DNA from: Terriglobia bacterium
GTDB taxonomy: Bacteria > Acidobacteriota > Terriglobia > 20CM-2-55-15
DNA: 64,000 nucleotides
Assembly (NCBI GenBank): GCA_965198225.1
Contig: CBDAOY010000008.1
Span: 768,012 to 832,011, forward strand
Reading direction: 5' to 3'
Shown here: positions 8,060 to 52,003 of the stretch, in pieces
Position numbering within the stretch: position 1 is the first letter of the stretch
Layout: each line of letters begins with the position of its first letter
Made by a program: the position numbers and the translations under genes
The notes under the pieces: generated by a model
What the model was told of the DNA's origin: nothing
The model's input: the letters and a program-made list of their open reading frames with translations, nothing else
Database searches by the model: none

Positions 8060-10128
8060 TCACTCCTCCGGGTACGGGGTCCGGTTTCTGTAAACGATCC
8101 ACAACGTGGACACGAGTGTGACTGCGGCCAGGACGTAGACGACGGGGTCGAGCTGATCCACCGGGAATCCCTGTTCACCGGCCCAGATCGCCAAGGCGTT
8201 GTTTCCAATGTGAAGTACGATTCCGGGAAAGATCGACCCGGTCATCAGCGCGACTGCGGTGATCACGATGCCGAGGAATCCGGTCGTGATGATCCTGAAG
8301 ATCGTCACGTGGAAGAACCCGAAGATGCCGCCGACGACGAGTGCGAGCACCACCGGCCGGAACTTGCGGCGCAGACCGTAGAGTAGAACTCCCCTGAAAC
8401 CGATTTCCTCGCAGATTCCGGGCAGCACCGCCACGAAAAACATCAACTGCCACAGCGGCAGCCCCTCGGCGGCGAAGGCCTCCGACATCTGCTCCATGAC
8501 GCTCTGAGGGACTGGGAATACCGTGCTCGCGAACGCCAACACTGGGATAGCACTGAGCGACATGGCAGGCAGCATCAGCAGGATCACCGGCCAGAGACCG
8601 ACTCGAATCGGTCTGATCGCCAGGGTCTTTCGAGGGTCGAGTCCGTAAACCTTGACGATCAGCAGCGTGGTCCCGATGAACAGCACCAGCTCGTTGAAAA
8701 TGAGCTGAGCGCGCAGAGTGCCCAGCTGCGGCACTCCTATCGCGACACCGAACATCACCGCCCAGAGCACGGCAAACCATCGCCAGACGTTTGCCCGGAA
8801 AGCCGCCGGACCGGTCATCTGTGCCGGGTGCCGCTCCTGTGTGGCCGTGATGAGACGTTCCTCTCCGAGCAGGCCGGCCGAAAAGCGGACGAGCGTGAAG
8901 GCCAGCAGGGAATTGACCAGAAAGGCAACCACGGTCATCGGCCAGTCGGGGTTGCCGGCCAGGACCTCCCTGGCGGCGACACTGACGTTGGCTACCGGGA
9001 CGAGTGCGATAGCGGACCGCAGGTCGACGCCCGGGATCGCGCCGGCGAAGGCCGGCAGCATGCCCACCATATAGACAGGAAAAAAGTATAGCTGGGCCTC
9101 CTTGTACGACTTTGCGTAGGCGGACAGCATCAGGAGGACTCCGGCGACAAGAACGGCAAGCGGAACGTAGAGCAGCATCAAAGCGAGCGCAGAAGACGTC
9201 GATACCCGAAAAACGAAGTCCTCCGGCAGAGGAATGATGTCGAAGCTGGTGTAGACGAGAAGGTTGCCGACCTGGATCAACGTGATCACGAGAGCGACTG
9301 CCATGATGACCAGCTGCTTGGCGGCGATGATGTCGGTCCTGCCGGCGGCCGTCGTGAGGAGGGTTTCCAGCGTGCCACGCTCCTTCTCGCCGGCAATGAT
9401 GTCCATGGCCACGACCGAGCCGCCGGTCAAGGTGAGCAGGAACAGGAAGGCGGTGATGAACCGACCGATCTGGAGACCCGATGTCTCGGCCGCCGAGGCC
9501 ATGCTGGTTTCTTCAATCGCTATGAGTTCGGAGAATCGAATGGGGATTCCCCTGTCTTCGAAAGCGCCTTCGGCCCCATCCCGTCGGCCCAGCGTCAGCA
9601 GTCGCCGCATCCTGTTCGCACCGTCGGCTGCGGATGCCCTGTTGCCGGGAACGAAGATCTGGATCACGGGAACGCCGTCCAGGCGCCGGGCGAGTTCGTG
9701 CGGAAGTTCCCCGTCCTCATCATCCTGTTCGTCCTCGCGCGCCGCCCATTCCTCATCCGCGGCTCCGGAGCTCAGCGCGTTCAGATAGAACTGAATTTCG
9801 CGTTCCCGGAGGCTGAGTTCCGGGTCCGGAACCTGCACCTCGTGACGTTTGAAGTTGTGCAGCTCCGAATCCGGGTCCGATTGCAGGGCCTCCTCGGCAC
9901 GACCGATCAAAAGACGTGCCTCCTCGCTCCAGTCACCGGTGATTGCGTAGTCGTAGACGGTCTCCACGAGTTGCAGGTCCCGGCGTTCCGAAGCGAAGCG
10001 GGTGGCGAACAACATCACGGGCATGACCAGCATGGGAAGGATGATCGAGAGGATGATCGTCCGCCGCGACCGCAGGAGCGTGCGGATTTCCAGCTGCCAG
10101 ATGAGACGAACCGTGTCCCAGTTCAATG
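8060..10128 (-). CDS. ABC-2 family permease fused to a C-terminal CPBP (CAAX/Abi) intramembrane protease domain
   Basis: Multi-TM permease; C-terminus carries CPBP motifs EEIGFRG, FGFFH and HIGNN; TTG start overlapping the ATPase stop (ATTGA); the longer ORF 8060..10213 overlaps the ATPase. Confidence 0.65.
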
Positions 10129-13116: not shown

Positions 13117-13971
13117 ATGCTGATGAAAGACTTCGGGAATTCCGGCACGCAAGTACCCGTCATCGGACAGGGTACATGGGAAATGGGTGATCGTCCCGCT
13201 GATGCGAAGCGCGAAATCGAGGCCTTGTGCGCGGGGCTGGATATGGGCCTGACCCATATCGACACCGCCGAGATGTATGGCAACGGGCGCTCGGAGCGAC
13301 TGGTCGGTAAGGCGATCGAGGGTCGGCGGGAGGAAGTGTTTCTGGTCAGCAAAGTGTTGCCGTCACACGGCGCCTATGACGATACGATCCGAGCGTGCGA
13401 ATCCAGCCTTCGCCGGCTGGGGACCGCCTACCTGGACCTATACCTGCTGCACTGGTGGACGGGGGGGAATCCGATTGAAGAAACGATGCGCGCAATGGCG
13501 AAGCTGGTCGACGACGGTAAGATACGGTTTGCAGGCGTGAGTAACCTGGAACTCGATGAGATGGACCAAGCCCGAGAGGCTCTCGGCGGGAAACCCCTAG
13601 TCTGCAATCAGGTGCTCTACCACCTGCAATCGCGCGGCATCGAGTTCCGCATGATCGACGAGTGTGCGGACCGTAGTGTGGCAATCGTCGCGTACTCGCC
13701 TCTGGGTCAGGGAGATTTCCCGACGCCGCAGGGCCGGCAGGGCAAGGCTCTCGCGCGAATTGCGGATCGCCACGGTAAGACGCCGCGTCAGGTGGCGCTG
13801 AATTTTCTCACAAGACAACGGAGCGTCTTCGCAATCCCGAAGGCCGCTCGGAGCGATCATGTTCGTGAAAACGCCGGCGCCCTCGGATGGTCCCTGACCA
13901 GGGAAGATCTCGCTCTGCTCGATGAAGCGTTTCCGCCCCCGGCGAAGGAAGTCCCTCTGGAGATGATCTAG
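13117..13971 (+). CDS. Aldo/keto reductase family oxidoreductase
   Basis: ...IGQGTWEMGD..., ...THIDTAEMYGNG..., AKR fold motifs; 284 aa. Confidence 0.85.
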   Translation: MLMKDFGNSGTQVPVIGQGTWEMGDRPADAKREIEALCAGLDMGLTHIDTAEMYGNGRSERLVGKAIEGRREEVFLVSKVLPSHGAYDDTIRACESSLRRLGTAYLDLYLLHWWTGGNPIEETMRAMAKLVDDGKIRFAGVSNLELDEMDQAREALGGKPLVCNQVLYHLQSRGIEFRMIDECADRSVAIVAYSPLGQGDFPTPQGRQGKALARIADRHGKTPRQVALNFLTRQRSVFAIPKAARSDHVRENAGALGWSLTREDLALLDEAFPPPAKEVPLEMI

Positions 13972-14061
13972 CCGTTGCGGGTTTTCGAGGAACGAATTGA
14001 ATCAAGCTCGGGCCAGGAAGGGGCGTTGCTTCGAAGGTGCCGCGGTAGGATCTTTAGAAGG

Positions 14062-14336
14062 CTAGTGACCTGTAACAGTGCTATCGGTACCAGCGTTCGG
14101 CGGAACGGCGTCGGATTCTAGGAGTGACGCCCGAGCCAATGCTGTTTCATTGCGAGGGCGTTACGACACCGAAGACGGCGCCGTTGGGCCGAACCCTTCG
14201 GGCCGATGGGGGTTGCGGGCGATCTCTTTGTCGGAAGCCGTCACCGATGAAAGAGCATCGCTTTCCGTCTCCCTCCTCGACCTCGCCCGCAAGACCCATC
14301 GGCGATGGTGCCGATAGCACTGTTACAGGCCACTAG
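14062..14336. mobile_element. MITE copy A (275 bp; TIR CTAGTGACCTGTAACAGTGCTATCGGTACCA ... TGGTGCCGATAGCACTGTTACAGGCCACTAG; TA duplication in a CTAG target)
   Basis: Near-identical reverse-complement copy at 51729-52003, diverged copy at 35240-35514; intergenic; internal ORFs not credible. Confidence 0.75.
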
Positions 14337-14395
14337 ATGTCGATTCCGAGAAACATCTTCCCCTTATCGGGTCGCTGACTCAAGGGTTCTCTTCG

Positions 14396-15913
14396 TCAAT
14401 TCAATCGAAAGATCGTGCAACACGCCGATCGAAAGGCTTCTTCAGCTTCGGGGTCGGAATTGAGCGCGCGAATCAGATTGCCGTGATCGTTCGTCACGAA
14501 GACAAGCCGAGACTGAAAGTCGTTCCGTATGACTTCCGCCGCTCGATTACCGGTGCGCGTGACGTCGACGTACCTGTCGTACAGTTCGGGGTCCTTCAGG
14601 TACATGAACAGAGGATCGAGCCCCACGATGAAGGTGTTTTCAGGAGCGGCGTAGAATAAGACCGGGAAGTCGTCCCAATCGGCGTTGAACACCCGCTCGC
14701 CGGGCCCGGTGTTTTCCCTGAACCATCCGGCCGCTTCGAGAGCCGGGCGATCGATTCCTTCACCCTGGAGTTCGTCGATCGCAGCACGCCCATTCGACCA
14801 GGCGAAGAAGCCGGCCAGGACCAGTGCCGCCGTCATCGACACCGCCTTACGGTATCCGGCCCAGGGGAAGGGTCTGGCTCCAACAGCGACCGCTGCCAGC
14901 AGAACGGAGAACAACGGCCAGTATTCCGAGAAGCGCCGGTGCTTCAGAAAGAGCACAAAGAAGAGGACCGACACCAGGGCCAGCGCATATCGGGCGGTGC
15001 GATTGTTCTCATCGGAAGCCCTCGCGAAGCCGAGCCCCGCGAGGAAGCATGTCAGCGCGATCCAACTGCTGGACAGCAGGTGGTCGGTCTCGAATGGGTA
15101 CCACTCGTTGCCCACGCGAACCGGAAACCCGCCGATGAGCTTGGAGCTGGCATGCACGATGACGAACCTCGCGTAGTCGAGCATGTAAGGGTGAATCAAC
15201 ATCCCCGCGAGCATCCCGGCGCCGGCGAACCAGATCGGATCAAGATTCCATTTTCCCTCGGCCACGGCCGCTCCGAGCACGGTCAAGGCCACAACGCCGC
15301 CCAGCATCGGGAAGGCCGCGTAGGTCCAGGCAAAGATAAAACCGACGGCGAACAACCCCCAGCGATACCGGCCGAGCGTGAGCCAGCAACCCAGCAGCAA
15401 CAGGATCGCACCCAGCGACTGGGCGCGAAGCAGGGACATCCGGTAGAGAAAAGGCTCCGATGCCGCTCCCAGGAGCACGAACCAGAACCACGGCCACCGC
15501 ACGCCGAATTTGCGGAGGAGGAAAAAGAAGGTTCCCGCCATCGCCGTAGCGAAGACGACGGCGGCGAGTTTCACCATGATCATGGGATCGCCGAGCGCGG
15601 TGAACGGTGCCATGAGGGCATGGAACAGGTAGTGGTGATCTGCGAAGTCGGCCTCCGATAGGATCGTCATCGAGAGGTAATCGAAGCGGAATGGCAGGAA
15701 GAGATGATCCAGCATGAGGGCGGCCATTCGCGCGTGATAGTACCCGTCGAATCCGGCCAGACCCGTCACCGAGAACTGAATCCACCCGAAGAATCCGAAT
15801 GCCAGAGTCAGCGCCAGGGTGTACTGGTAGAAGGGTCTACGGATGAGGACTGCTGCCAGCGCCAGGCTCGGGGGTTCTTCGCCCCGGGTCGATGATGTGG
15901 TTTCCTCGAGCAA
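14396..15913 (-). CDS. Polytopic membrane protein, candidate GT-C-type (PMT/ArnT-like) glycosyltransferase
   Basis: About 11 predicted TM helices plus a C-terminal soluble domain; follows a GT2 polyprenyl-phosphate sugar synthase homologue in the same operon; family assignment is inferred from architecture, no catalytic motif confirmed. Confidence 0.4.
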   Translation of the reverse strand: MLEETTSSTRGEEPPSLALAAVLIRRPFYQYTLALTLAFGFFGWIQFSVTGLAGFDGYYHARMAALMLDHLFLPFRFDYLSMTILSEADFADHHYLFHALMAPFTALGDPMIMVKLAAVVFATAMAGTFFFLLRKFGVRWPWFWFVLLGAASEPFLYRMSLLRAQSLGAILLLLGCWLTLGRYRWGLFAVGFIFAWTYAAFPMLGGVVALTVLGAAVAEGKWNLDPIWFAGAGMLAGMLIHPYMLDYARFVIVHASSKLIGGFPVRVGNEWYPFETDHLLSSSWIALTCFLAGLGFARASDENNRTARYALALVSVLFFVLFLKHRRFSEYWPLFSVLLAAVAVGARPFPWAGYRKAVSMTAALVLAGFFAWSNGRAAIDELQGEGIDRPALEAAGWFRENTGPGERVFNADWDDFPVLFYAAPENTFIVGLDPLFMYLKDPELYDRYVDVTRTGNRAAEVIRNDFQSRLVFVTNDHGNLIRALNSDPEAEEAFRSACCTIFRLN

Positions 15914-16063
15914 TGTGGTAGGTCTTGATCTGTATCAGCTTAGTGGTGGTCCGACTCTGCCGATCATATGAGGGTCAGCGGCTGGCACGGCAGGGAACCA
16001 GCCGGGAGAAGTCCAGCCAGACCCCGGCGTCCGGTCGCGAGATCCTGGATCGGTTGATACGAC

Positions 16064-16837
16064 CTACGGCGTGTCGTGCCGTTCGGCCGGTAGTTCGCCG
16101 CGAGTAGGCACCTCGCCCCACCGGACGCTCCACCAGACCCGCGGCAGCTCGAGCAGCGCGCGAAGGACCACGTCGAGCCGCGCTCCCGATTGCCGGCCGT
16201 GCCGACGGGCGTAGTGGTGGACTCCGATCTCTTCAAACACGTGCCCGCGCAAGCGGAGGCGCGCGAGCAGTTCGGCGTTGAAGAGAGCTCCGGTCGAAGA
16301 AAGGGAGACTCCGGCGATGGCGGACCGCCGGAAGAGCTTGAAGGCGCAATTCATATCCCTGCAATGGACACGCAGGACCACCCCGATCAGGGTCGTGTAG
16401 AGGGAGCCGAGCAGTCCCCGTCCCGTGGCATCCTGGCGGTTCAACCGGTACCCGAGTACGCCATCCGCTTCGCCGAGGACTTCGATGAGCCTGGACAACT
16501 CGGAAACGTTGAACTGGCCGTCGGCATCGGTGAAGAAGACGAACTCGAACCTCGCTGCTTTCATCCCGCTCCAGACAGCGGCGCCATACCCGCGATTCCG
16601 GACGTGTATCACGGTCCGCAACGTTGGATATTCCGATTGCAGCCGTTCGGCTTCGTCCTCGGTACCGTCGGTGCTGCCGTCGCAGACGACGATGATCTCG
16701 TGCGTTTCCGCGCAGGAAACGCCCGTTGCCGCAGCTTCTCGGACGACATCGGCGAGGTTCTCTCGCTCGTTGTGACACGGAAGGACGATGGAAAGTCCGG
16801 ATAGCCTCAACCTTCTCTCCTCATCTGTTCCATCCAC
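16064..16837 (-). CDS. GT2 family glycosyltransferase, polyprenyl-phosphate sugar synthase type (Dpm1/GtrB/Ppm1-like)
   Basis: ...LSIVLPCHNERENL..., ...VVCDGSTDGTEDEA..., ...FFTDADGQF... (DXD); 257 aa. Confidence 0.8.
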   Translation of the reverse strand: MDGTDEERRLRLSGLSIVLPCHNERENLADVVREAAATGVSCAETHEIIVVCDGSTDGTEDEAERLQSEYPTLRTVIHVRNRGYGAAVWSGMKAARFEFVFFTDADGQFNVSELSRLIEVLGEADGVLGYRLNRQDATGRGLLGSLYTTLIGVVLRVHCRDMNCAFKLFRRSAIAGVSLSSTGALFNAELLARLRLRGHVFEEIGVHHYARRHGRQSGARLDVVLRALLELPRVWWSVRWGEVPTRGELPAERHDTP

Positions 16838-17556
16838 CGGCGCTCCTCGAGTGCCGCAACAAGGAAACAGGTCACGGCGACCAACTCCACTCCTTCGTCC
16901 CAGAAGTCGACGTACCAGTTCCCTCGGGTCGCGGCGGGGAACAGGCCGACGTCAAAAAATTGCGACAATGTAAAGAGCGCAACTCCGGCGGCAGCCAGCC
17001 GTCCCGAGCTTCTCCGGAACAACTGCCGGAACTGTCCGGTCCGGATCAACGGTCGGATGAGAAACACGAGCAGGGTCAGAACGACCCCTGCCAGCAACAA
17101 GGTGATAAGCAAGGTCAGCCAGGGTTGGTGCTGGAAAAGGTCCTCGAGAGTATTGTGGACGTTCAACATGTTGTAGTCGACCCTTCCTTCCCGTACCGCC
17201 CTGATCTGCCGGGTCACGTTGCCCCAGTCGGATTCCTCACCCGCGCCCAGGATGCCGAGAACGCCGACGGCCCGCCAGCAGTTGGGGAAGGAGGGTCGCA
17301 GGTCGCGACTGGCAGCCTGAAACGCAAATACGGAGAGGAGGATGTAGCCGACGAACTGTGCCGTTTCGACCGGACCGTTCTCCTGGAGCACAACAAGGAC
17401 GAAGTCCGATTGGGGTTCGACCAGCATCAGCAGTTCGACGATGCTGACGAACAGGATTACCAGGCCGAGAGAAAGCCGAGTCGAAGGGCTCGTCGAGGCT
17501 CGTGAACGCGGTGGGTCCGCCGTAAACGCGCGGCCGAGGAACGTTTCCGCCTTCAC
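16807..17556 (-). CDS. Hypothetical integral membrane protein (operon partner of GT2/GT-C and the pilin genes)
   Basis: Several TM helices; 4-nt overlaps with neighbours on both sides indicate co-transcription. Confidence 0.45.
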   Translation of the reverse strand: MKAETFLGRAFTADPPRSRASTSPSTRLSLGLVILFVSIVELLMLVEPQSDFVLVVLQENGPVETAQFVGYILLSVFAFQAASRDLRPSFPNCWRAVGVLGILGAGEESDWGNVTRQIRAVREGRVDYNMLNVHNTLEDLFQHQPWLTLLITLLLAGVVLTLLVFLIRPLIRTGQFRQLFRRSSGRLAAAGVALFTLSQFFDVGLFPAATRGNWYVDFWDEGVELVAVTCFLVAALEERRWMEQMRREG

Positions 17557-18779
17557 TTCCGGACCTCCCGGAACGTGATGACCCTGGTCCGGATCGACGA
17601 GAGGTAGTTGCTTATCCGAGTCATGTCGAGCGCCAACTCGAAGCTGCCTCCTCCTTCGAAGTCCCCCCCGGCGATCGCCGCGCCATAGAGATTGTGGACC
17701 GACCCCCCTCCGCCAACGTCGAAATTTCCGGAACAGATGATCAGACCGTAGAAGGCGATGTTGGACAGGTCGACATCGCCGTCCGCGATGAGGATGCCGT
17801 AGGCGCTGTTGTTGTTTCCGTTGATGTCCACGGAACGGTCGCTGTACATGAGCGCAGGATTGGCGTCTGTGCCCACGGCAAAGCCAGTGTAGCGGTAAAG
17901 GTCGGATTGGGTGACCGTCGGCGTCGCGAGATCCGTTATCGGCGTGAAAGCGGCGCTGGCGGCGGCGACGTAGCTGGCGACGTCATAGTCGGGGCTGACG
18001 CTTCCGACCATGTCGTTCGGCGCTGCCGGGAAGAACAACTGGGTCGGGGGACTGGGAGTCGGAGGGGACGTATCTGCAGCCCGAACGCCGTCGACAGTCA
18101 CACCGGCAGTCACGTCGATTCCGTTGACCGAGATGTTTCCCTGCAGGGTCACGTCCCCGTTGGTTCGAACCACAGCGTCGATCGTAGGGCTGATGATGAA
18201 TGCCGGAACGATTTCAGCCTCGACCAACTCTCGACGCCCGTTGAGGGTGGCGTAGGCCTGGATCGTCCGGATCGGCACGCCGTTGCCGGTCAGATTTCGG
18301 GTCAGGTTGCCCGTCGTAGCGTCCGGTCCCAGGTAGACGACAGTGGTCGCGTCCAGACCAGCGACACCGTCGATGTCCCGGTTCTTGTTTGCTTCAGTGT
18401 TGTAGAAGATCTTGACCAGGACGTAAGGCGGGGTTCCCCCCAGCGCGGTCGCGACGGAGGTCGAGCCGTATCCACCGTATGCGGGATCCAGACCCAGGAT
18501 GTTGACGGTCGTGTCCGAGCGGATGTACCCGGCCCAGTTGGCCGTCGGTACCGCTGGCAGACTGGGTAGCTGCGACGCGGAACCGTAAAGAAGGCGTGCG
18601 CGCGCCTCCTCGATCCCGGCATCCGCGAAGTAAAACAGTTGGAGATTCCGTTCCAGGACCGAACTCGAGCGAGCATCCTCGAGCAGGTTCATCATCAGCA
18701 GGAGGGTCAGCGCGCTCATCATCGAGAGCAGGATCAGGACCGTGATCAGCGCGACTCCGCGTGCTTTCGATGCTCTCAT
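17553..18779 (-). CDS. PilX/GspK-like large minor pilin (PilX N-terminal domain)
   Basis: N-terminus MRASKARGVALITVLILLSMMSALTLLL is a typical PilX_N/GspK hydrophobic segment; 408 aa. Confidence 0.6.
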   Translation of the reverse strand: MRASKARGVALITVLILLSMMSALTLLLMMNLLEDARSSSVLERNLQLFYFADAGIEEARARLLYGSASQLPSLPAVPTANWAGYIRSDTTVNILGLDPAYGGYGSTSVATALGGTPPYVLVKIFYNTEANKNRDIDGVAGLDATTVVYLGPDATTGNLTRNLTGNGVPIRTIQAYATLNGRRELVEAEIVPAFIISPTIDAVVRTNGDVTLQGNISVNGIDVTAGVTVDGVRAADTSPPTPSPPTQLFFPAAPNDMVGSVSPDYDVASYVAAASAAFTPITDLATPTVTQSDLYRYTGFAVGTDANPALMYSDRSVDINGNNNSAYGILIADGDVDLSNIAFYGLIICSGNFDVGGGGSVHNLYGAAIAGGDFEGGGSFELALDMTRISNYLSSIRTRVITFREVRK

Positions 18780-18841
18780 CGTCCTATCCGCCTCCGTGCG
18801 GATTGTCGATCATCTTGCAGGCGCTCCAGGGCGTCGGTGTC

Positions 18842-19981
18842 TCATCGGCTTGAATTCGAGTTGGAGTTGCCGTTCGAGTTGGAGTTGCCGTTCGAATTGA
18901 AGTTGCCGTTCGAGTTGGAGTTGCTGTTCGAGTTGGAGTTGCTGTTCGAGTTGGAGTTGGAGTTGCTGTTGCTGTTGGAGTTGCCGTTCGAATTGGAGTT
19001 GGAGTTCGTGTTCGAGTTGGAGTTCGTGTTGCCACCACCACCATTGGCGTTGCCGCCATTGCCGTTGCCCCCGGAGGGCGTCGTCATGAAGCCGAGGATC
19101 CCGCTCCGCCGAAGCGTGACGTCGGAGCTGAGGGTCACGTTGATCTGATTACCCGAGACGGGGTGGTTCTGACTCGCGAAGGATGTGACCGAGAGGTTGA
19201 TCCGCGTGATATTGCCGAGGGTGCCGGTCGGAACCGAACTCTGTCCGCTACCGCCGCCGCTACCACCGCTGCCACCGCTACCGCCGTTCCCGTTGGAATT
19301 TGTGTTGCCGTTGGAGTTCGAATTCGTGTTGCCGTTCGAGTTCGTGTTGCCGTTCGAGTTTGAATTCGAGTTGGAGTTGCTGTTCGAGTTGGAGTTGCTG
19401 TTCTGGTTGGAGTTGCTGTTTGAGTTGGAATTGCCGTTCTGCGCTGCCAACGTGATGAAGCCCCATCGGCGGAGGAGTCGAGCGACGGGAGACGCCGTGG
19501 GTGACGGGGGATTGCTGACGAAGCTTCCGGCATCACCGGTCGACACGAAATACGCAAAGAGCAACGCCGAGATATTGGATGCCAGTTGCTGCGACGTCGC
19601 CGTGCCTGTCAGGGCACCGGTCGCGTCCAACGGTTGTGTCGTCCGTGTGATGATGTTGTTGGCGTAGCTGAACGTCACCCGTTCGACCGTTCCGTCATCA
19701 TTCGTGTCGCCCGAAAAGGCGACCGTGGACTGATCGGCCTGGGCGATCGGCGTCACACCGGCGGGAGTGTTGTAGCCGGCGGACAGCAATTCCCGCCCGA
19801 TGCGTTCGGCTGCGAGCCGGGAATTCTGGCCGGCCTCGAGCTGGGACTGCTGGATCTGATAGGTTCTCTGATTCTGGGTGACGAGGAGAAAGACCGCTCC
19901 GAGGACGACCATCAACACAGCCACAACGATCAAGACTTCCAGCAGGGTGAAACCTTTGCTTCCTCTCTGTGCAGCTCTCAT
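18842..19981 (-). CDS. PilW/GspJ-like prepilin-type minor pilin with a long Asn/Ser/Gly-rich repetitive C-terminal tail
   Basis: Class III signal ...SKG|FTLLEVLIVVAVLMVVLGAV; C-terminal (NSNSNG)n, GGSGGSGGSGGGSG and (NSNSNS)n tracts encoded by hexanucleotide repeats. Confidence 0.6.
   Translation of the reverse strand: MRAAQRGSKGFTLLEVLIVVAVLMVVLGAVFLLVTQNQRTYQIQQSQLEAGQNSRLAAERIGRELLSAGYNTPAGVTPIAQADQSTVAFSGDTNDDGTVERVTFSYANNIITRTTQPLDATGALTGTATSQQLASNISALLFAYFVSTGDAGSFVSNPPSPTASPVARLLRRWGFITLAAQNGNSNSNSNSNQNSNSNSNSNSNSNSNSNGNTNSNGNTNSNSNGNTNSNGNGGSGGSGGSGGGSGQSSVPTGTLGNITRINLSVTSFASQNHPVSGNQINVTLSSDVTLRRSGILGFMTTPSGGNGNGGNANGGGGNTNSNSNTNSNSNSNGNSNSNSNSNSNSNSNSNSNSNSNSNGNFNSNGNSNSNGNSNSNSSR
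18850..19032. repeat. Tandem hexanucleotide/18-nt repeat tract 1 (GAGTTG/GAGTTC units) inside the pilW-like gene
   Basis: gttcgagttggagttgccgttcgagttggagttgc... repeated; encodes (NSNSNG)n on the minus strand. Confidence 0.75.
19288..19440. repeat. Tandem hexanucleotide repeat tract 2 inside the pilW-like gene, preceded by a GGTAGCGGC repeat (19237-19290)
   Basis: gttggagttcgaattcgtgttgccgttcgagtt... encodes NSNSNSN; the GGS-coding repeat lies immediately upstream on the coding strand. Confidence 0.75.
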
Positions 19982-20000
19982 AGACAAACTCTCCCTCGTG

Positions 20001-20405
20001 TTACGGGGCCCGATAGGTTCGGGCCGAGAGGTCGATCGGCGATGTTCCACCGATACCGGTGATAACGGTCGTGGTCACCGTGATCTCTTTCATCCCGACG
20101 CCCGGGGAATCGACTGTGACGGTCCAGGATCGGGTGAAGGCAGCTCCTGTCTCGGAAGTTTGCGGAATCCCGTCATCGTCCAGAAAGTCATTTCCGCTCT
20201 GCAAGGAATCATACGATGTGGCCTTCAATTCCTCCATCTTTTGTCGCAGGGCGGAGGTCATCCTCGAGATGTCCTGACTGTTCTTCGTTCCGATGACACT
20301 GGTGCTCATCGCGCCGGCCACCGCGAGGACGCCCGTCATCAGGATGAGCGAGGCAAGCATCAACTCGATGAGGCTGAAGCCTCTCTGGCTACTGGATGCT
20401 GACAT
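20001..20405 (-). CDS. PilV/GspI-like prepilin-type minor pilin
   Basis: N-terminus MSASSSQRG|FSLIELMLASLILMTGVLAV is a prepilin cleavage/methylation motif; 134 aa. Confidence 0.65.
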   Translation of the reverse strand: MSASSSQRGFSLIELMLASLILMTGVLAVAGAMSTSVIGTKNSQDISRMTSALRQKMEELKATSYDSLQSGNDFLDDDGIPQTSETGAAFTRSWTVTVDSPGVGMKEITVTTTVITGIGGTSPIDLSARTYRAP

Positions 20406-20940
20406 GGCTGGTTCCGGACACGGTTACCTGGAGGCTGTTCCCCAGATCGTTCGTCACCGTGACGGTGTAGTTCGCGGTGATGTAATCATTGTTCAGATCC
20501 ACGACGTCGCCCGCGCTGTCGAACGAGATTGCGTGGACTCCTGCCGAGACCGTCGGCGCGTTCGAAGAAATGTCGACGCCGCTTGGAAGCACGATCGGGT
20601 CGCCGAGATCCGCGTAGACGGTGCCAGCCGTCAGGGAAAAGGGAGCCGTCGGGACGACGCGCTGTCGCTTGTAGGAATTGGCGTTCGTCGCCGACGTGGA
20701 GGCATAGAGCAGTATCCGATAGCCGGTGGTGTCCGAGATCGCGTCAAAGTGGCTGCGCTGAACCAGGGCGGCGATGCCGCGGGCCGACCCGTCGAGGACG
20801 TAGTTGGCGTTGATACTGGTCAGGTTCGGCACCGCTATGGCCAACACGATCAGCATGATAGCGATAACCATCGCTACTTCGAGCAAGCTGAAGCCGCGGT
20901 TTGTTCGAGCCAATCCTTTACCTCCTCCAGTTTGCCGCAA
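20389..20940 (-). CDS. FimT/FimU/GspH-like prepilin-type minor pilin
   Basis: ...TNRG|FSLLEVAMVIAIMLIVLAIAV; an internal TTG at about 20910 with an 8-nt GGAGGAGG RBS may be the real start (7-aa leader). Confidence 0.65.
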   Translation of the reverse strand: MRQTGGGKGLARTNRGFSLLEVAMVIAIMLIVLAIAVPNLTSINANYVLDGSARGIAALVQRSHFDAISDTTGYRILLYASTSATNANSYKRQRVVPTAPFSLTAGTVYADLGDPIVLPSGVDISSNAPTVSAGVHAISFDSAGDVVDLNNDYITANYTVTVTNDLGNSLQVTVSGTSHVSIQ

Positions 20941-21005
20941 TCAAACGCGCAAACGGAGCATCTGGGCCCGAGGGGGCCGTCAAACATCAATCCATCGAGT
21001 GGAAT

Positions 21006-21021
21006 GGCAGTTTCGGTTCCA
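21006..21021 (-). promoter_or_regulatory. Candidate sigma-54 (-24/-12) promoter for the minor-pilin operon
   Basis: Minus-strand TGGAACCGAAACTGCC has GG-N10-GC spacing (consensus TGGCAC-N5-TTGCW), about 70-100 nt upstream of the fimT-like start. Confidence 0.25.
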
Positions 21022-21383
21022 AAACTCGACCACTCATGGTGTGAGATGTCCGGTTCCCCTAGGGGCCGGCGCAAGAGCCCCCTTTTTTAAGGATAGAACA
21101 ACGCGATTATACGAACGGGACGGAACGACTGTAAAGCGGATATTGGAGTAGGATAGCGTCCTAGACACAACGACTTGTCGTTCTTGCGCGCTTTTGACTC
21201 AGAACTTTGTCGCTAGGAGAGTGCCCCGGCACGGACGGCTTCGCGGCATTGCCAGCGCGGATCGAACGGCTACTCTTGTCAGCGCCGAACCAGACGCTCG
21301 GCCTCTGCGGGGTCGGCGAGGCAGTCAGAGCGTTGACAGCCTGAGGGTGGTCGCATCCGATGGGGCCGTCTATCGCACCCGAC

Positions 21384-22376
21384 TCAGGGGAGACGCTCAA
21401 CAAGTCGGGAGTGGAGATCCGCCAGGACCACCTCGGCGGCGCCCTGGATCGAGACATCCAACTGCGCGGAGACGGCTGTCGCTTCGAGATTGATTTCCGC
21501 GCACCCGAAGGTGGAGATCCGCGTGAGACATCCCTTTGCTTCGAGATTGATTTCCGCAGCAAAGGCTCCGCGTGCCTTTGCGGTACTGCTGAGCGATGCT
21601 GCAGGGTAGACGACCGACGAGGTCCCAACGGTCAGGAATACGTCGCAGACCAGGGCCCCGGTCGCCTGCTCGAGCGTTTCCGAGGCGATTCCTTCACCGA
21701 ACCAGACGACACCGGGTCGGATGGGGCCATCACAGTGCGGGCATGTCGGCGGCAGCTTCTCGAACGTCGTCGTTTCGTCGAGCCACTTCGGTGGCGAGGA
21801 CGGGCAATCGTTCCAGCAAGAGACCTCCCAGATCGATCCGTGGAAGCGAACCACGTTGCTCGTGCCGGCTCGCTCGTGGAGGCCGTCGATGTTCTGAGTG
21901 ATCAGGGTGAACTCGGGATAGCGATGGCTCCAATCCGCGATGACTTCGTGGGCCCGGTTGGGCCTGCAGGCCGCGATCTTTTCCCTGCGCCACTGATACC
22001 ATTCCCATACGAGTTGCGGGTTCTCTGCGAATGCCTGGGGTGTGGCGAGGCTTTCCGGACGGTAGGACTTCCACAGGCCTTCCTGGCCACGAAAAGTGGG
22101 GACGCCGCTGGCTGCCGACACGCCCGCACCGGTCAACACGGTGAGGCTTCGCGCACCGTCCAGGGCGTCGACGATCCGATCGAGTGGGTCCTCCACTGCG
22201 GAGGATTGTAGAATGGGGACATCGTTCCGCAAGGATTTGTTGAGGGCAAAAAACAATAGGGGCGGACCGGCTCCGTGCTCGATCGATCTTGGTGGTTTAA
22301 AGCGCCTGCCGTTGAACACCGCAATCTGCGACACAGTCGGCGGAGACCTACTTCCGGATAGCGACGATAGTCGCAT
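21384..22376 (-). CDS. cobB: NAD-dependent protein deacylase, sirtuin (CobB/Sir2 family)
   Basis: ...LTGAGVSAASGVPTFRG..., ...QNIDGLHERAG..., Zn ribbon CWNDC...CPHCDG; the start could also be the GTG near 22199; the C-terminal region carries a 20-bp direct repeat (21482/21539) and a hairpin (21560-21582). Confidence 0.75.
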   Translation of the reverse strand: MRLSSLSGSRSPPTVSQIAVFNGRRFKPPRSIEHGAGPPLLFFALNKSLRNDVPILQSSAVEDPLDRIVDALDGARSLTVLTGAGVSAASGVPTFRGQEGLWKSYRPESLATPQAFAENPQLVWEWYQWRREKIAACRPNRAHEVIADWSHRYPEFTLITQNIDGLHERAGTSNVVRFHGSIWEVSCWNDCPSSPPKWLDETTTFEKLPPTCPHCDGPIRPGVVWFGEGIASETLEQATGALVCDVFLTVGTSSVVYPAASLSSTAKARGAFAAEINLEAKGCLTRISTFGCAEINLEATAVSAQLDVSIQGAAEVVLADLHSRLVERLP

Positions 22377-22570: not shown

Positions 22571-23806
22571 ATGAAGAACGCGAAACTGCACGCCTTCAAC
22601 AGACTCGCATTTGGGCCGCGGCAGGAAGATCTCGATCGCGATCTGGTCGATCTTCAGGAACACGTCGAGGTCCAGCTCCACCCGGCCGACATCGCCGACC
22701 AGGCGATAGAGCAGCGGCTGGCGACCCTGGAAACGCTCGGCATGTCGCCCCTGGAGTTCCTGAGGAAGTATCCCGGGCGCCGGGACTGGCGGATCGGTTT
22801 GCAGCAGCTGACGGCCGCAAAGCTGCTGCGCGCCGTCCAAAGCGAATGCCAGCTCCGGGAAGTGATGGTCGACTTCTGGTTCAATCACTTCAACGTATTC
22901 GCGGGTAAAGGTGCATGCCGGCTCCTGGTTTCTTCCTACGAGAGAGACGCCATCCGCCCGTACGTCTTCGGAAAGTTTCGCGAACTGGTGTCGGCGACGG
23001 CGCGCCACCCTGCGATGCTGTTCTACCTGGACAACTGGCTGAGCGCGTCGCCCGACGCCGAGCCGCGTGGGCGTCGTCGTGGGCTCAACGAGAACTATGC
23101 CCGGGAGTTGATGGAACTGCACACGCTCGGCGTCGATGGTGGCTACACGCAGGAAGACGTCGTCGCCGTGGCGCGCGCCTTCACCGGCTGGACGATAGAG
23201 GCCCCCCGGCGCCCGAGCTTCATGTTTGCCCCACCGCTGCATGACGACGGTGCCAAGACCGTCCTTGGCAGGGCGATAGACGGCGGCGGGATGCGGGATG
23301 GCGAACAGGTGATCGATGTGCTCTGTGGTCACCCGTCTGCGGCGCGGTTTGTCGCGACCAAATTGATTCGGCGTTTCGTCTCCGACGATCCCCCTGCGGC
23401 GCTGGTGGAGAGTGTGGCGCGGACGTTTACCCGGACGGATGGCGACATCCGGGAGATGCTCCGCGTGGTGATCCATTCGCGGGAGTTCGCCGAATCGGAA
23501 CAGCAGAAGGTCAAGACGCCGTTCGAGTTCGTCATCAGCGCCGTGCGTGCGCTCGGAGCCGAGGTGAGCAATCCCGGTATTCTCGCGCGGTTCCTGCAGC
23601 GGATGGGTCAGCCGCTCTACATGGCCATACCGCCGACCGGCTACTCCGACGAGGCGGCCGATTGGATGAGCTCCGGCACGCTGATGTTGCGTCTCAACTT
23701 CGTGGCGCAGATCGCTGCGGGGCGATCGCGGGGAATTCAGCTCGACGGGCGCGAGCCGGAGCAGATCGTCAGGAATCTGGGGACGCCGGAGTTTCAGCGG
23801 CGCTAG
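22571..23806 (+). CDS. DUF1800 family protein
   Basis: ...WFNHFNVFAGKGACRLLVSSYERDAIRPYVFGKFRELVSATARHPAMLFYLDNWLS... is the diagnostic DUF1800 block; pairs with a DUF1501 gene. Confidence 0.7.
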   Translation: MKNAKLHAFNRLAFGPRQEDLDRDLVDLQEHVEVQLHPADIADQAIEQRLATLETLGMSPLEFLRKYPGRRDWRIGLQQLTAAKLLRAVQSECQLREVMVDFWFNHFNVFAGKGACRLLVSSYERDAIRPYVFGKFRELVSATARHPAMLFYLDNWLSASPDAEPRGRRRGLNENYARELMELHTLGVDGGYTQEDVVAVARAFTGWTIEAPRRPSFMFAPPLHDDGAKTVLGRAIDGGGMRDGEQVIDVLCGHPSAARFVATKLIRRFVSDDPPAALVESVARTFTRTDGDIREMLRVVIHSREFAESEQQKVKTPFEFVISAVRALGAEVSNPGILARFLQRMGQPLYMAIPPTGYSDEAADWMSSGTLMLRLNFVAQIAAGRSRGIQLDGREPEQIVRNLGTPEFQRR

Positions 23807-24077
23807 CAGCCCGTGGCAGAACTCTGCAGGGCCGCGTTACGGCCAAACGGGGACCGGATTCTAGGAGGCGAGGACGAAACAATGCTCATTCATTGGGAGG
23901 AGTCGGCGACAACGAAGACGGCCCCATTTCGCCGTAACCCGAAGGGCGCAGGGGGGGGCGGGCCGCAGGCTTTGTCGCTCGTCGGTCACGATGAATGATC
24001 ATCGCTCCGCTCCTCTCTTCGCGCCTGCAACCCGAAGACCCCTGCGCGCGACCCTCCAGAGTTCTGCCACGGGCTGC
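23806..24077. mobile_element. MITE copy D: same roughly 210-bp core as copies A/B/C but different 30-bp termini (GCAGCCCGTGGCAGAACTCTGCAGGGCCGC ... inverted), with TA duplication
   Basis: Core blocks cggattctaggag, aatgct..ttcattg.gagg, cgaca.cgaagacggc, ctttgtcg and gtcac.gatgaa.ga.catcgct are shared with 14062-14336; flanked by TA/TA; sits between the DUF1800 and DUF1501 genes. Confidence 0.55.
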
Positions 24078-24122
24078 TATAGGGATGTTATTTCTGATTC
24101 AGGACGCCAGTTGGGTGAGGGA

Positions 24123-25346
24123 ATGGGCTTGACCAAGGAGTTTCGCATGGATCGCAGGAGTTTCCTGAAAGGTACCGGTGCATCGATCGTCACGCTCGGG
24201 TTTGCCCCTCGACTGGTGTGGGGCCAGGCGGCACGGCCCAAGGTGGTCGTGTCGGTGTTCCAGAGAGGTGCCGTGGACGGGTTGAATATGGTCGTCCCGT
24301 TCGCCGAGCAAACCTACTACGACAGCAGACCCAACATCGCGATCCCGATGCCTTCGCGTGAAGGGGAGGGGAAGGCTCTGGATCTGGACGGTTTCTTCGC
24401 CTTCCACCCTGCGATGGCTCCCCTGAAGCCCCTCTTCGAGGAGGAACGGCTCGCCGTGGTTCATGCCGCCGGTTCGCACGACCCCACGCGATCGCACTTC
24501 GACGCCCAGGACTACATGGAGTCGGCGACTCCTGGTGTGAAGAGCACCCGCGACGGCTGGATGAACCGCTACCTTCAGAGTGCTGCCGGTGACGCCAGTC
24601 CCCTTCGGGGTATGTCGATCGGCCGCAGCCTGCCCCGCACGCTCGCCGGGCGCTCGGCGACATTCTCTCTGGGTTCACTGGCGGAAGCCCGCCTGAACGG
24701 GCCCGCGCGTCTGTATAGGGAACTCTTCCAGGGTGAGCGGGAAGACATCGTTTCTCAGGCGTCGGTCGAGCTGTTCGAGACCCTGGACTTTCTCGAAGGC
24801 AAGCGTCTGGAAGACTACTCCCCCTCGGTCGACTATCCCAACGGACGGTTCCCTGCCGCCATGCGCGATGTGGCGCAGTTGATCAAGACCGACGTCGGGC
24901 TGGAAACGGCGTTCGTCGAGATTGGCGGGTGGGATCATCATGCCAACGAGGGTGGGACACGCGGCCAGATTGCGAATCGACTCCGCGAGTTCTCGGGTGG
25001 ACTGCGCGCTTTCTACGACGATCTCGGCGATCGGGTCGAAGACGTGGTCGTGGTCACGATGTCGGAATTCGGCCGGACCGTACGCGAGAACGGCAACCGC
25101 GGGACCGACCACGGCCACGCCAACGCCATGCTCGTCCTGGGGGGACCGGTGCGCGGCGGCAAGGTCTACGGTAAATGGCCCGGGCTCGAAACCGAGAAAC
25201 TCCATGAAGGGCGGGATCTGGCCGTAACCACCGACTTCAGGAACGTCCTGGCCGAAGTCTTGGCCGAGCATCTCGGAGCGGGCGACCTGGATGGTGTATT
25301 TCCGGACTTCGAGATTGCGAAACCGTTCGGTCTCATCCAGGCCTAG
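24123..25346 (+). CDS. DUF1501 family protein (Tat-signal, sulfatase/phosphatase-like fold)
   Basis: MDRRSFLKGTGASIVTLGFA twin-arginine motif; the listed ORF start at 23991 runs through the MITE, so it is trimmed to MGLTKEF (24123) or MDRRSF (24147). Confidence 0.7.
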   Translation: MGLTKEFRMDRRSFLKGTGASIVTLGFAPRLVWGQAARPKVVVSVFQRGAVDGLNMVVPFAEQTYYDSRPNIAIPMPSREGEGKALDLDGFFAFHPAMAPLKPLFEEERLAVVHAAGSHDPTRSHFDAQDYMESATPGVKSTRDGWMNRYLQSAAGDASPLRGMSIGRSLPRTLAGRSATFSLGSLAEARLNGPARLYRELFQGEREDIVSQASVELFETLDFLEGKRLEDYSPSVDYPNGRFPAAMRDVAQLIKTDVGLETAFVEIGGWDHHANEGGTRGQIANRLREFSGGLRAFYDDLGDRVEDVVVVTMSEFGRTVRENGNRGTDHGHANAMLVLGGPVRGGKVYGKWPGLETEKLHEGRDLAVTTDFRNVLAEVLAEHLGAGDLDGVFPDFEIAKPFGLIQA

Positions 25347-51728: not shown

Positions 51729-52003
51729 CTAGTGGCCTGTAACAGTGCTATCGGTACCATCGCCGATGGGTCTTGCGGGCGAGGTCGAGGAGGGAGACGG
51801 AAAGCGATGCTCTTTCATCGGTGACGGCTTCCGACAAAGAGATCGCCCGCAACCCCCATCGGCCCGAAGGGTTCGGCGGAACGGCGCCGTCTTCGGTGTC
51901 GTAACGCCCTCGCAATGAAACAGCATTGGCTCGGGCGTCACTCCTAGAATCCGACGCCGTTCCGCCGAACGCTGGTACCGATAGCACTGTTACAGGTCAC
52001 TAG
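51729..52003. mobile_element. MITE copy C (reverse-complement, near-identical to copy A)
   Basis: CTAGTGGCCTGTAACAGTGCTATCGGTACCA...TGGTACCGATAGCACTGTTACAGGTCACTAG; spurious ORFs 51729..51941 and 51748..51987 mirror those in copy A. Confidence 0.75.

Follow-up and report, generated by a model that had tools for sequence, protein, structure and literature searches.

What are a GT2 glycosyltransferase and a large polytopic membrane protein doing in an operon of minor pilins? The question is raised by a 64,000-nucleotide (nt) stretch of the Terriglobia bacterium assembly GCA_965198225.1 (contig CBDAOY010000008.1, positions 768,012 to 832,011 of the forward strand), which is referred to below as the window and which belongs to the source genome G000. 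Seven co-directional open reading frames (ORFs) occupy window positions 14396-20940 on the minus strand, and the ORF list and translations bear out the seven genes that an earlier note, made from the letters alone, had described here. The reading that we favour, at roughly even odds, is that the locus joins an accessory set of four minor (pseudo)pilins to a periplasmic protein-glycosylation module acting on the asparagine tracts of one of these pilins, as gene association and a predicted fold suggest. The features concerned are these, in the order of transcription.

20389..20940, minus strand: prepilin 1, 183 amino acids (aa), GspH/FimU-like by position, signal ...NRG↓FSLLEV
20001..20405, minus strand: prepilin 2, 134 aa, PilV/GspI-like by size and position, signal ...QRG↓FSLIEL
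18842..20050, minus strand: PilW/GspJ-like prepilin, 402 aa from the GTG at 20050; the likelier start is the ATG at 19981, giving 379 aa
19286..19438, minus strand: first (N-x)n tract of the PilW-like gene, residues 205-255, x being S, G, T or Q, followed by a GGS-rich stretch
18854..19030, minus strand: second (N-x)n tract of the same gene, residues 341-399, forming the C-terminal tail
17553..18779, minus strand: PilX/GspK-like minor pilin, 408 aa, with Pfam PilX_N
16807..17556, minus strand: polytopic membrane protein, 249 aa, about six predicted helices, no family match
16064..16837, minus strand: GT2 glycosyltransferase, 257 aa, PF00535 at E 2e-25
14396..15913, minus strand: STT3-like glycosyltransferase of the C superfamily (GT-C), 505 aa, about 12-13 transmembrane (TM) helices and a C-terminal domain of about 120 aa

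The 505-aa protein matched no Pfam or NCBIfam family, and the models PF02366, PF13231 and PF16192 (PMT/PMT_2-ArnT) did not recognise it. When 39 members of its family were scanned against Pfam at E<=1, only scattered chance matches were returned, with no PMT, PMT_2, STT3 or Wzy_C (PF04932) among them. A six-frame search of G000 with PF02516 found nothing, and no meaningful match came from running the family profile on PDB sequences (best E 0.37). Full-length relatives numbered more than 120, mainly from Chloroflexota and Acidobacteriota and none with a Pfam domain; they carry the name hypothetical protein, apart from one UniRef name beginning 'Glycosyltransferas…'. At least 584 loci of the family are present in the reference-genome collection (Chloroflexota, Acidobacteriota and Binatia). 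A protein-atlas search returned unnamed clusters, together with PMT_2, STT3 and Dpy19 clusters at 0.94, which were taken as leads only.

The AlphaFold2 (AF2) model of the 505-aa protein, built on the 39-sequence alignment, reached a mean predicted local distance difference test score (pLDDT) of 92.7, and a Foldseek search with it gave 31 PDB matches at E<=1e-3, all of them GT-C enzymes and led by STT3 at E 5e-9. In VIA-align the 17 best rows were catalytic subunits of oligosaccharyltransferases (OSTs), namely human STT3A/B, yeast Stt3, AglB and PglB, with Z 22.4-26.7, root-mean-square deviations of 3.3-4.0 Å and 430-476 residues aligned, so that residues 15-505 were covered. Among the other GT-C enzymes, protein mannosyltransferases (PMTs) reached Z ~22 on residues 19-386 only, ArnT 20-21 and DPY19 ~19.5. 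As modelled, the 505-aa protein has a GT-C fold, in agreement with the architecture that the earlier note had read from its sequence. Comparison of profiles by hhalign pointed in the same direction: against nine PF02516-positive proteins of Acidobacteriota the family profile scored a probability of 97.7% (E 2.5e-12, 349 columns; 99.2% in global mode), with its DGYYH motif aligned with the DxWYH of STT3 and its RRFxEY with RFxYY, whereas a control against 12 PMT_2 proteins scored 53% (E 1.4e-4, 107 columns).

On this fold match and profile-profile homology the 505-aa family is a divergent, compact branch of the STT3 superfamily. It shares with STT3/AglB/PglB (GT66, PF02516) the whole-chain fold, the profile homology, an Asp motif in the first external loop (EL1), the Arg of RRFxEY/RFxYY and a W-D motif placed right after the last TM helix. 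In contrast, its C-terminal domain spans about 120 aa against 250-400 aa in the OSTs, and it lies outside GT66 in the strict sense, having no PF02516 match, no aligned DxD/DxE/DxH motif and (D)WD(D)F in place of WWDxG. Residues invariant in the 39 sequences are D56 (of DGYYH), H98, R158, E270 (GNEW), R327, E330 and Y331 (RRFxEY), W413, D414, F416 and D433. D56 is the conserved acidic residue of the first periplasmic loop and aligns with the D of DxWYH; D92-H93-H94, also in EL1, are invariant or nearly so, and D412 and D415 are at least 90% conserved, which defines the family motif (D)WD(D)F at 412-416. The PMT-like identity that had been proposed for the pair of glycosylation genes is abandoned for the 505-aa protein. 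A PMT/ArnT-type enzyme was rejected on the missing Pfam signature, the far shorter and weaker profile alignment and a PMT fold match limited to the TM part, and a PglL/TfpO-type enzyme on the lack of any PF04932 match at E<=1 in the 39 members.

The candidate acceptor lies in the PilW-like pilin. What had been described as an Asn/Ser/Gly-rich tail of roughly 200 aa proved to be two tracts, rich in Asn and Ser as described, in which Asn occupies every second position and which are separated by some 65 aa of conserved, non-repetitive sequence. A six-frame scan of the 6.4-Mb G000 genome with the pattern (N.){5,}N hit nothing but these two tracts, and the looser pattern (N[SGT])n picks out the PilW-like protein alone. 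The positions of the tracts are kept in all four PilW-like orthologues and their lengths differ. They are encoded by imperfect in-frame hexamer repeats (65-69% match), and contigs from two independent DNA runs carry a 6-nt deletion relative to the window, equal to one Asn-x unit, at 18962 in the second tract; tract length is thus polymorphic in natural populations. Slipped-strand phase variation was considered and rejected, as the hexamers are poorly matched and in frame and as the length polymorphism involves no frame switching. Classical N-x-S/T sequons were likewise set aside as the acceptor: the three in the conserved middle segment (NIT, NLS and NVT) are not kept in the related genomes G003 or G006. 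In the orthologue of a further relative, G002 (about 9480-9888 of its contig), the conserved segment is followed, ahead of the terminal (NS)n tail, by a block of extra repeats of the ATPTAV/PTRT type, which may represent repeat DNA of the same sort translated in a different frame.

The link between enzyme and tract does not depend on the pilins. We surveyed 79 distant loci of the GT-C family, from Chloroflexota, Blastocatellia, Binatia and another member of Terriglobia. Under a lenient definition of the tract, tract proteins are encoded at 3/68 of the gene positions at -2, 41/72 at -1, 9/77 at +1 and 18/71 at +2, making 71/288 within two genes of the GT-C gene as against 2/615 at three genes or more. 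A strict definition gave 0/68, 22/72, 6/77 and 12/71 at the same four positions and 1/615 further away. These neighbours are DUF5666 lipoproteins with a lipobox and DUF5667/DUF5666 anti-sigma-like proteins encoded beside extracytoplasmic function (ECF) sigma factors; they are unrelated to pilins and, like a pilin, are all extracytoplasmic. The suggestion that the Asn/Ser-rich region is a credible glycan acceptor gains from this association across phyla. The suggestion of a module dedicated to pilins did not fare as well for the enzyme family, since no prepilin motif was found in the 79 distant loci or in five further high-scoring phylum loci, two of which have a tract neighbour. About six loci of Blastocatellia have a tract protein, the GT-C and an orthologous GT2, in that order. 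The usual Chloroflexota order is DUF5666 lipoprotein, GT-C, ECF sigma factor and DUF5667/DUF5666 anti-sigma-like protein, both DUF proteins bearing tracts, and this neighbourhood suggests a sigma/anti-sigma pair with a modified extracytoplasmic part. The DUF5666 ORFs of G000 itself lie elsewhere in the genome and have no tract.

Among 301 sampled Acidobacteriota the GT-C family was found in 45, and by hand count five or more tract windows occurred in 18/45 genomes with the family as against 22/256 without it (the 256 include one unpublished genome, on which no claim rests). All 16 sampled genomes of one Acidobacteriota family have both the GT-C gene and several (N-x)n-coding tracts, the latter scattered over other contigs or lying at a distance from the GT-C gene, as expected of a general rather than a dedicated glycosylation system.

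Nearer to the window, 41 related genomes were surveyed. A full-length PilX-like gene, the 249-aa gene and the 505-aa gene all turned up in one and the same set of 4/41, namely G000, G002 and G003 of one genus and G006 of another. All seven genes stand in order between the same flanking genes in G002 and G003. The four pilins, the GT2 and the GT-C are kept in G006 and in two metagenome contigs, L001 and L002, where the 249-aa gene is divergent and upstream. The gene order is conserved in G002 and G003 and rearranged in G006, and wherever the glycosylation genes turned up among the relatives they are syntenic with these pilins. In G004, a single-contig genome of the same genus as G000, the cluster is missing, and 2.9 kb of unrelated sequence lies between the genes for Sir2 and EamA. 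Since the same four genomes hold its genes and the same locus lacks it in G004, the cluster is an accessory unit inherited together; and its recurrence in three other genomes, taken with a tract that is unique in 6.4 Mb, argues that the arrangement is not due to chance.

The GT2 protein carries the motifs DGSTD (53-57) and DAD (104-106). Its best solved relatives in a PDB sequence search were three ArnC orthologues (E ~1e-15), the Pyrococcus DPMS 5mlz (2e-11) and GtrB (3e-5), and its NCBIfam matches ranked ArnC, PgaC/IcaA and AglJ (E 1e-14), with PpgS lower, all under the equivalog cut-offs. The GT2 is thus predicted from its sequence to be a polyprenyl-phosphate monosaccharide synthase, much as the earlier note had it. 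It has none of the C-terminal TM helices of ArnC, GtrB and DPMS, the PDB matches stopping at about residue 217 and the protein ending at 257 after an amphipathic stretch. Soluble polyprenyl-phosphate sugar synthases that need a partner include human DPM1 and mycobacterial Ppm1. The 249-aa membrane protein matched no Pfam or NCBIfam family, GtrA and SMR-type flippases included; it had only three matches among 1.8 billion representatives, its protein-atlas clusters are unnamed, and its AF2 model is weak (pLDDT 62.7). Its invariant motifs E-x-G-P-x-E, A-G-E-E-x-x-W-G and N-x-H-N are rich in Glu and His. Our guess is that it serves as the membrane partner of the soluble GT2 or as a lipid-sugar flippase.

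If the favoured reading is correct, the soluble GT2, working on the cytoplasmic side of the membrane, would use a nucleotide sugar to charge polyprenyl phosphate with a monosaccharide, a step that the orphan 249-aa protein may assist. The lipid-linked sugar would then be flipped to the periplasmic face, where the STT3-like GT-C would move it onto both alternating-Asn tracts of the PilW/GspJ-like pilin. Transfer would take place on the membrane-anchored pilin, still in the inner membrane and not yet part of the pilus-tip complex, and would leave this tip pilin with a brush-like, heavily glycosylated appendage. Gene content, the modelled fold, remote STT3 homology, co-inheritance, the uniqueness of the tract and the cross-phylum adjacency are results of the analysis; the donor, the flipping step, the tract as acceptor and the linkage are inferences.

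Should the tract be the acceptor at all, we consider an N-linkage to Asn somewhat more probable than an O-linkage to Ser, because Asn is the only invariant residue of the tracts, the nearest relatives of the enzyme are N-oligosaccharyltransferases and DWDDF aligns with WWDxG. Across the family x is Gly or Asp at 20% of positions each, Glu or Ser at 13% each, Thr at 12% and Ala at 11%. Ser and Thr together thus make up only about 25%, and many tracts (NGNANGN..., NDNANDN..., NENEN...) contain no hydroxyl residue, so that O-linkage inside the tract, the chemistry originally proposed for this module, cannot be the rule for the family as a whole. In PglB structures the WWD motif of the OST reads the Ser/Thr at +2 of the sequon; the candidate +2 residue for the window enzyme would be Asn, because the tract is of the form (N-x)n. 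This permits a more specific proposal, namely that the compact STT3 branch is a bacterial N-glycosyltransferase which takes a polyprenyl-phosphate monosaccharide as donor and acts on Asn in N-x-N tracts read by DWDDF, and which was recruited here to poly-glycosylate a tip pilin. We put it forward tentatively, as possible though doubtful.

A number of observations weigh against a glycosylation module of this kind, beginning with the fact that the glycosylation half of the proposal is built from gene association and a modelled fold. At the second acidic motif of the OSTs (DxD/DxE/DxH, in EL2) the alignment places R-A-Q of the 505-aa protein opposite D-H-H of the template, though the alignment may be shifted there, and the C-terminal-only hhalign that sets DWDDF on WWDxG is not significant alone (E 0.018, probability 2.6%). 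In the window's own tracts x is mostly Ser (38/54), so that an O-linkage is possible in this pilin. In G006, L001 and L002 the GT2 gene is split by an insertion sequence (IS) element with a 510-aa DDE_Tnp_1_4 transposase, inserted at about residues 41-45 with duplication of those residues (positions 10370-12209 of L010 in G006, 7383-9222 of L001 and L002), while the pilins and the GT-C gene are intact; either the GT2 is dispensable there or the system is decaying. No tract neighbour was found at 25/79 distant loci, several of which lie at contig ends, and a Blastocatellia subgroup of seven loci has other conserved neighbours. Short (N-G)n tracts and unrelated microsatellites are present in relatives that yielded no copy of the enzyme, and the excess of tracts in family-positive Acidobacteriota is an enrichment, not exclusivity, among genomes that are phylogenetically non-independent. 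In the Blastocatellia subgroup the conserved neighbours are two co-directional genes for proteins of about 268 aa and 755-808 aa, and one example of each (267 aa and 778 aa, from different loci) was sampled and had no Pfam match.

The alternative that survives best is a PMT/ArnT-style O-glycosylation, in which the GT-C moves a monosaccharide from a polyprenyl-phosphate sugar to Ser/Thr hydroxyls in the tracts of the PilW-like pilin. The composition of the window tracts is in its favour, as 5/54 of their x positions are Thr in addition to the Ser given above, and the tracts gave low-complexity NCBIfam matches to the Sdr/Clf adhesins, which reflect their likeness to Ser-X repeats. Ser-X dipeptide repeats are glycosylation targets in Gram-positive bacteria, where the SD repeats are modified by SdgA/SdgB. 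The GT2 is moreover of the monosaccharide-phosphate-lipid type used by PMT, ArnT and GtrX systems, and the PMT structures do match the TM domain of the 505-aa protein (Z ~22). None of the 39 family members has a PMT, PMT_2 or Wzy_C match, however, the profile comparison prefers STT3 to PMT_2 by 349 columns to 107, and the scarcity of Ser and Thr across the family leaves many tracts without a hydroxyl to modify. We regard this alternative as rather unlikely.

It is less likely still that the GT2 and GT-C act on a non-protein glycoconjugate (lipopolysaccharide core, lipid A, exopolysaccharide or a cell-wall polymer) and that their adjacency to the pilins and Asn-tract proteins reflects co-regulation or island structure rather than a relation of enzyme to substrate. 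Most known bacterial GT2 and GT-C pairs, such as ArnC/ArnT and GtrB/GtrX, do act on glycans or lipids, which speaks for this alternative, as do the third or so of family loci with no tract neighbour, the dispersal of tracts far from the GT-C gene in the Acidobacteriota family described above and the 150-nt gap ahead of the GT-C gene. Set against it are the concentration of tract proteins within two genes of the GT-C gene, an association that holds for two unrelated families of tract-bearing proteins, the position of the sole tract protein of G000 three genes upstream of the GT-C gene, and the fact that the nearest homologues and structural matches are protein-modifying OSTs.

That the adjacency is historical only, in a mosaic island shaped by IS elements and a miniature inverted-repeat transposable element (MITE), with pilins and glycosylation genes independent of each other or the module in decay, is most unlikely: the IS-split GT2 genes, another IS directly upstream of the GT-C gene in the pilin-less metagenome contig L003, a MITE with at least 40 copies abutting the operon and the absence of the cluster from its locus in G004 all fit such a history, but every catalytic-candidate residue is intact in the window's 505-aa protein, rearrangement has not parted the four pilins, the 249-aa gene and the GT-C in either of the two genera, and the tracts keep their positions in all four orthologues. 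Both this alternative and a non-protein substrate are disfavoured because of the positional enrichment and because the association follows the tract across unrelated protein families.

Returning to the favoured reading of a pilin-linked protein-glycosylation module, parts of it have precedents. The closest by description is TfpW of Pseudomonas aeruginosa group IV, a periplasmic GT-C pilin arabinosyltransferase which uses a polyprenyl-phosphate-linked monosaccharide donor and O-glycosylates Ser/Thr of the major pilin with D-arabinofuranose (D-Araf) oligomers (bioRxiv 10.1101/2020.04.19.049825). As here, the GT-C is encoded beside a pilin gene, and the two were compared by description only; the window differs in having a minor pilin with Asn tracts, an STT3-like enzyme and a GT2 as the donor-making gene. 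With respect to the OSTs, the co-encoded GT2 suggests a polyprenyl-phosphate monosaccharide donor in place of their pyrophosphate-linked oligosaccharide, and the neighbours of the 505-aa family carry N-x-N tracts rather than N-x-S/T, the three N-x-S/T sites of the window pilin being unconserved.

In the euryarchaeal AglJ and AglB pathway a hexose is loaded onto polyprenol monophosphate by a GT2 and is passed on to Asn by an enzyme of the STT3 family. AglJ is third among the NCBIfam matches of the window GT2, below the cut-off; the archaeal pathway, in contrast, extends its glycan with more glycosyltransferases and uses N-x-S/T, and the window cluster encodes no further glycosyltransferases. 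GtrA/GtrB/GtrX, and ArnC/ArnT with ArnE/F, combine a small membrane protein, a GT2 polyprenyl-phosphate sugar synthase and a GT-C to modify O-antigen or lipid A, and the window cluster likewise encodes a small membrane protein, a GT2 and a GT-C together. The 249-aa protein, however, matches neither GtrA nor SMR, the window GT2 has no TM helices, and the substrates of those systems are not proteins. Actinobacterial Ppm1 with PMT offers a GT2 lipid-sugar synthase that has no TM anchor paired with a protein-modifying GT-C, but the 505-aa enzyme has no PMT/PMT_2 signature and a weaker profile and structure match to PMT than to STT3, and the tracts are centred on Asn.

GT-C pilin glycosylation, in TfpW, which the earlier note did not mention, and GT2 with GT-C modules are known already; what was not found in the literature searched is the STT3-like family, its link to (N-x)n tracts and its occurrence within an operon of minor pilins. 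The searches, on DUF5666, on Acidobacteria with minor pilin and glycosyltransferase, on GT-C/STT3, on Chloroflexi OST and on Asn-rich repeats with N-glycosylation, returned nothing on the 505-aa family. To our knowledge, bacterial N-glycosylation of the OST type has essentially been confined to PglB, in Campylobacterota and a few Desulfobacterota, with (D/E-x-)N-x-S/T as the acceptor site in every case. The adjacency of the enzyme family to alternating-Asn proteins in several phyla suggests an undescribed protein-glycosylation system. If this is true, there would be a second, compact STT3-like family, common in Chloroflexota and Acidobacteriota, paired with (N-x)n tracts and maybe fed by a simple GT2, which would mean that bacterial protein glycosylation reaches more taxa and follows a broader acceptor logic than known so far, and which might provide a small orthogonal enzyme/tag pair for glyco-engineering. 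The locus itself would then hold the first minor (tip) pilin with a dedicated poly-glycosylated appendage, with a bearing on adhesion, on the masking of phage receptors and, in view of the sponge metatranscriptome matches described below, on contact between symbiont and host.

As regards the pilins themselves, four prepilin-type N-termini had been described. Three of them are of class III (RG↓FSLLEV, RG↓FSLIEL and KG↓FTLLEV, consensus G↓F(S/T)L(L/I)E, by Pfam and motif scan), with Pfam N_methyl at E 9e-6 for prepilin 1, 8e-6 for prepilin 2 and 2e-7 for the PilW-like protein; the fourth, in the 408-aa protein, is PilX_N (E 9e-7, above the cut-off), a domain that has no E5. Prepilin 1 also matches TIGR02532, and prepilin 2 matches TIGR02523 (PilV) at E 1e-4, below the cut-off. 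The names FimT, PilV and PilW thus stand only on gene order, size and N-terminal motif, the NCBIfam matches being below the cut-offs and confined to the N-termini. Orthologues of prepilin 1 in G002, G003 and G006 are 57-87% identical to it. PDB sequence searches with the PilW-like and PilX-like proteins gave low-complexity matches (circumsporozoite NANP repeats) or nothing. No pilY1 follows pilX in the window, unlike in an operon of the fimU-pilVWXY1E type; the 249-aa membrane protein, the GT2 and the GT-C follow instead. The set described here is the second or third minor-pilin set of the genome. At about 54.9-63.3 kb of another G000 contig, C3, there are three prepilins with a 906-aa PilX_N protein and, on the opposite strand, two prepilins with a 421-aa PilX_N protein, and none of the ten ORFs scanned in this 18-kb stretch is a glycosyltransferase gene. 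Further prepilin clusters of G000 lie on contigs C8 (318 kb and 550 kb) and C9 (654 kb and 978-991 kb).

The genes of the window operon are less uniformly packed than the overlaps of 4-17 nt that had been described. Two junctions do fall in that range, namely prepilin 1 with prepilin 2 (17 nt) and pilX with the 249-aa gene (4 nt). Prepilin 2 and the PilW-like gene are separated by about 19 nt, or overlap by 50 nt if the GTG start is used; the PilW-like gene and pilX are 62 nt apart, the 249-aa gene and the GT2 overlap by 31 nt, and the 505-aa gene follows a gap of 150 nt. One feature may bear on transcription.

21106..21135, minus strand: promoter-like site, TTTACA-18 nt-TATAAT, about 165 nt upstream of the first pilin ORF

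This was the only sigma-70-like match in 13900-21500, at 11/12 positions; as shuffled sequence gives 1.6 such matches on average, its position is the one argument in its favour. Two sponge metatranscriptome libraries (runs X15 and X17 of one study) contained contigs that match parts of the operon exactly, at 20708-20928 (prepilin 1), 19882-20059 (pilV/pilW), 18752-18937 (pilW/pilX), 18168-18354 (pilX) and 17098-17415 (249-aa gene). Coverage was thin, and no contig fell on the GT2 or GT-C genes except for a 35-nt mismatched piece. These contigs give a weak hint that the operon is expressed and co-transcribed, as DNA can contaminate such libraries; the exact matches within 13900-21500 also suggest that the bacterium, or a near-identical strain, lives in a sponge-associated community.

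The operon is flanked upstream by a gene for a Sir2 deacylase and downstream by a convergent aldo-keto reductase gene. Upstream of Sir2, at 22571-25346, a pair of genes encodes DUF1800 and DUF1501 (Tat-signal) proteins and is conserved at this locus in relatives whether or not they have the pilin cluster. The 275-bp MITE-like element, with terminal inverted repeats of 34 nt, directly follows the GT-C gene on its downstream side, at 14062-14336; a second copy lies at about 51729-52003. Its full-length copies in the genome, at least 40 in number and 96-100% identical, are spread over 8/9 contigs, and its depth in DNA runs is about 60-80 times that of its flanks.

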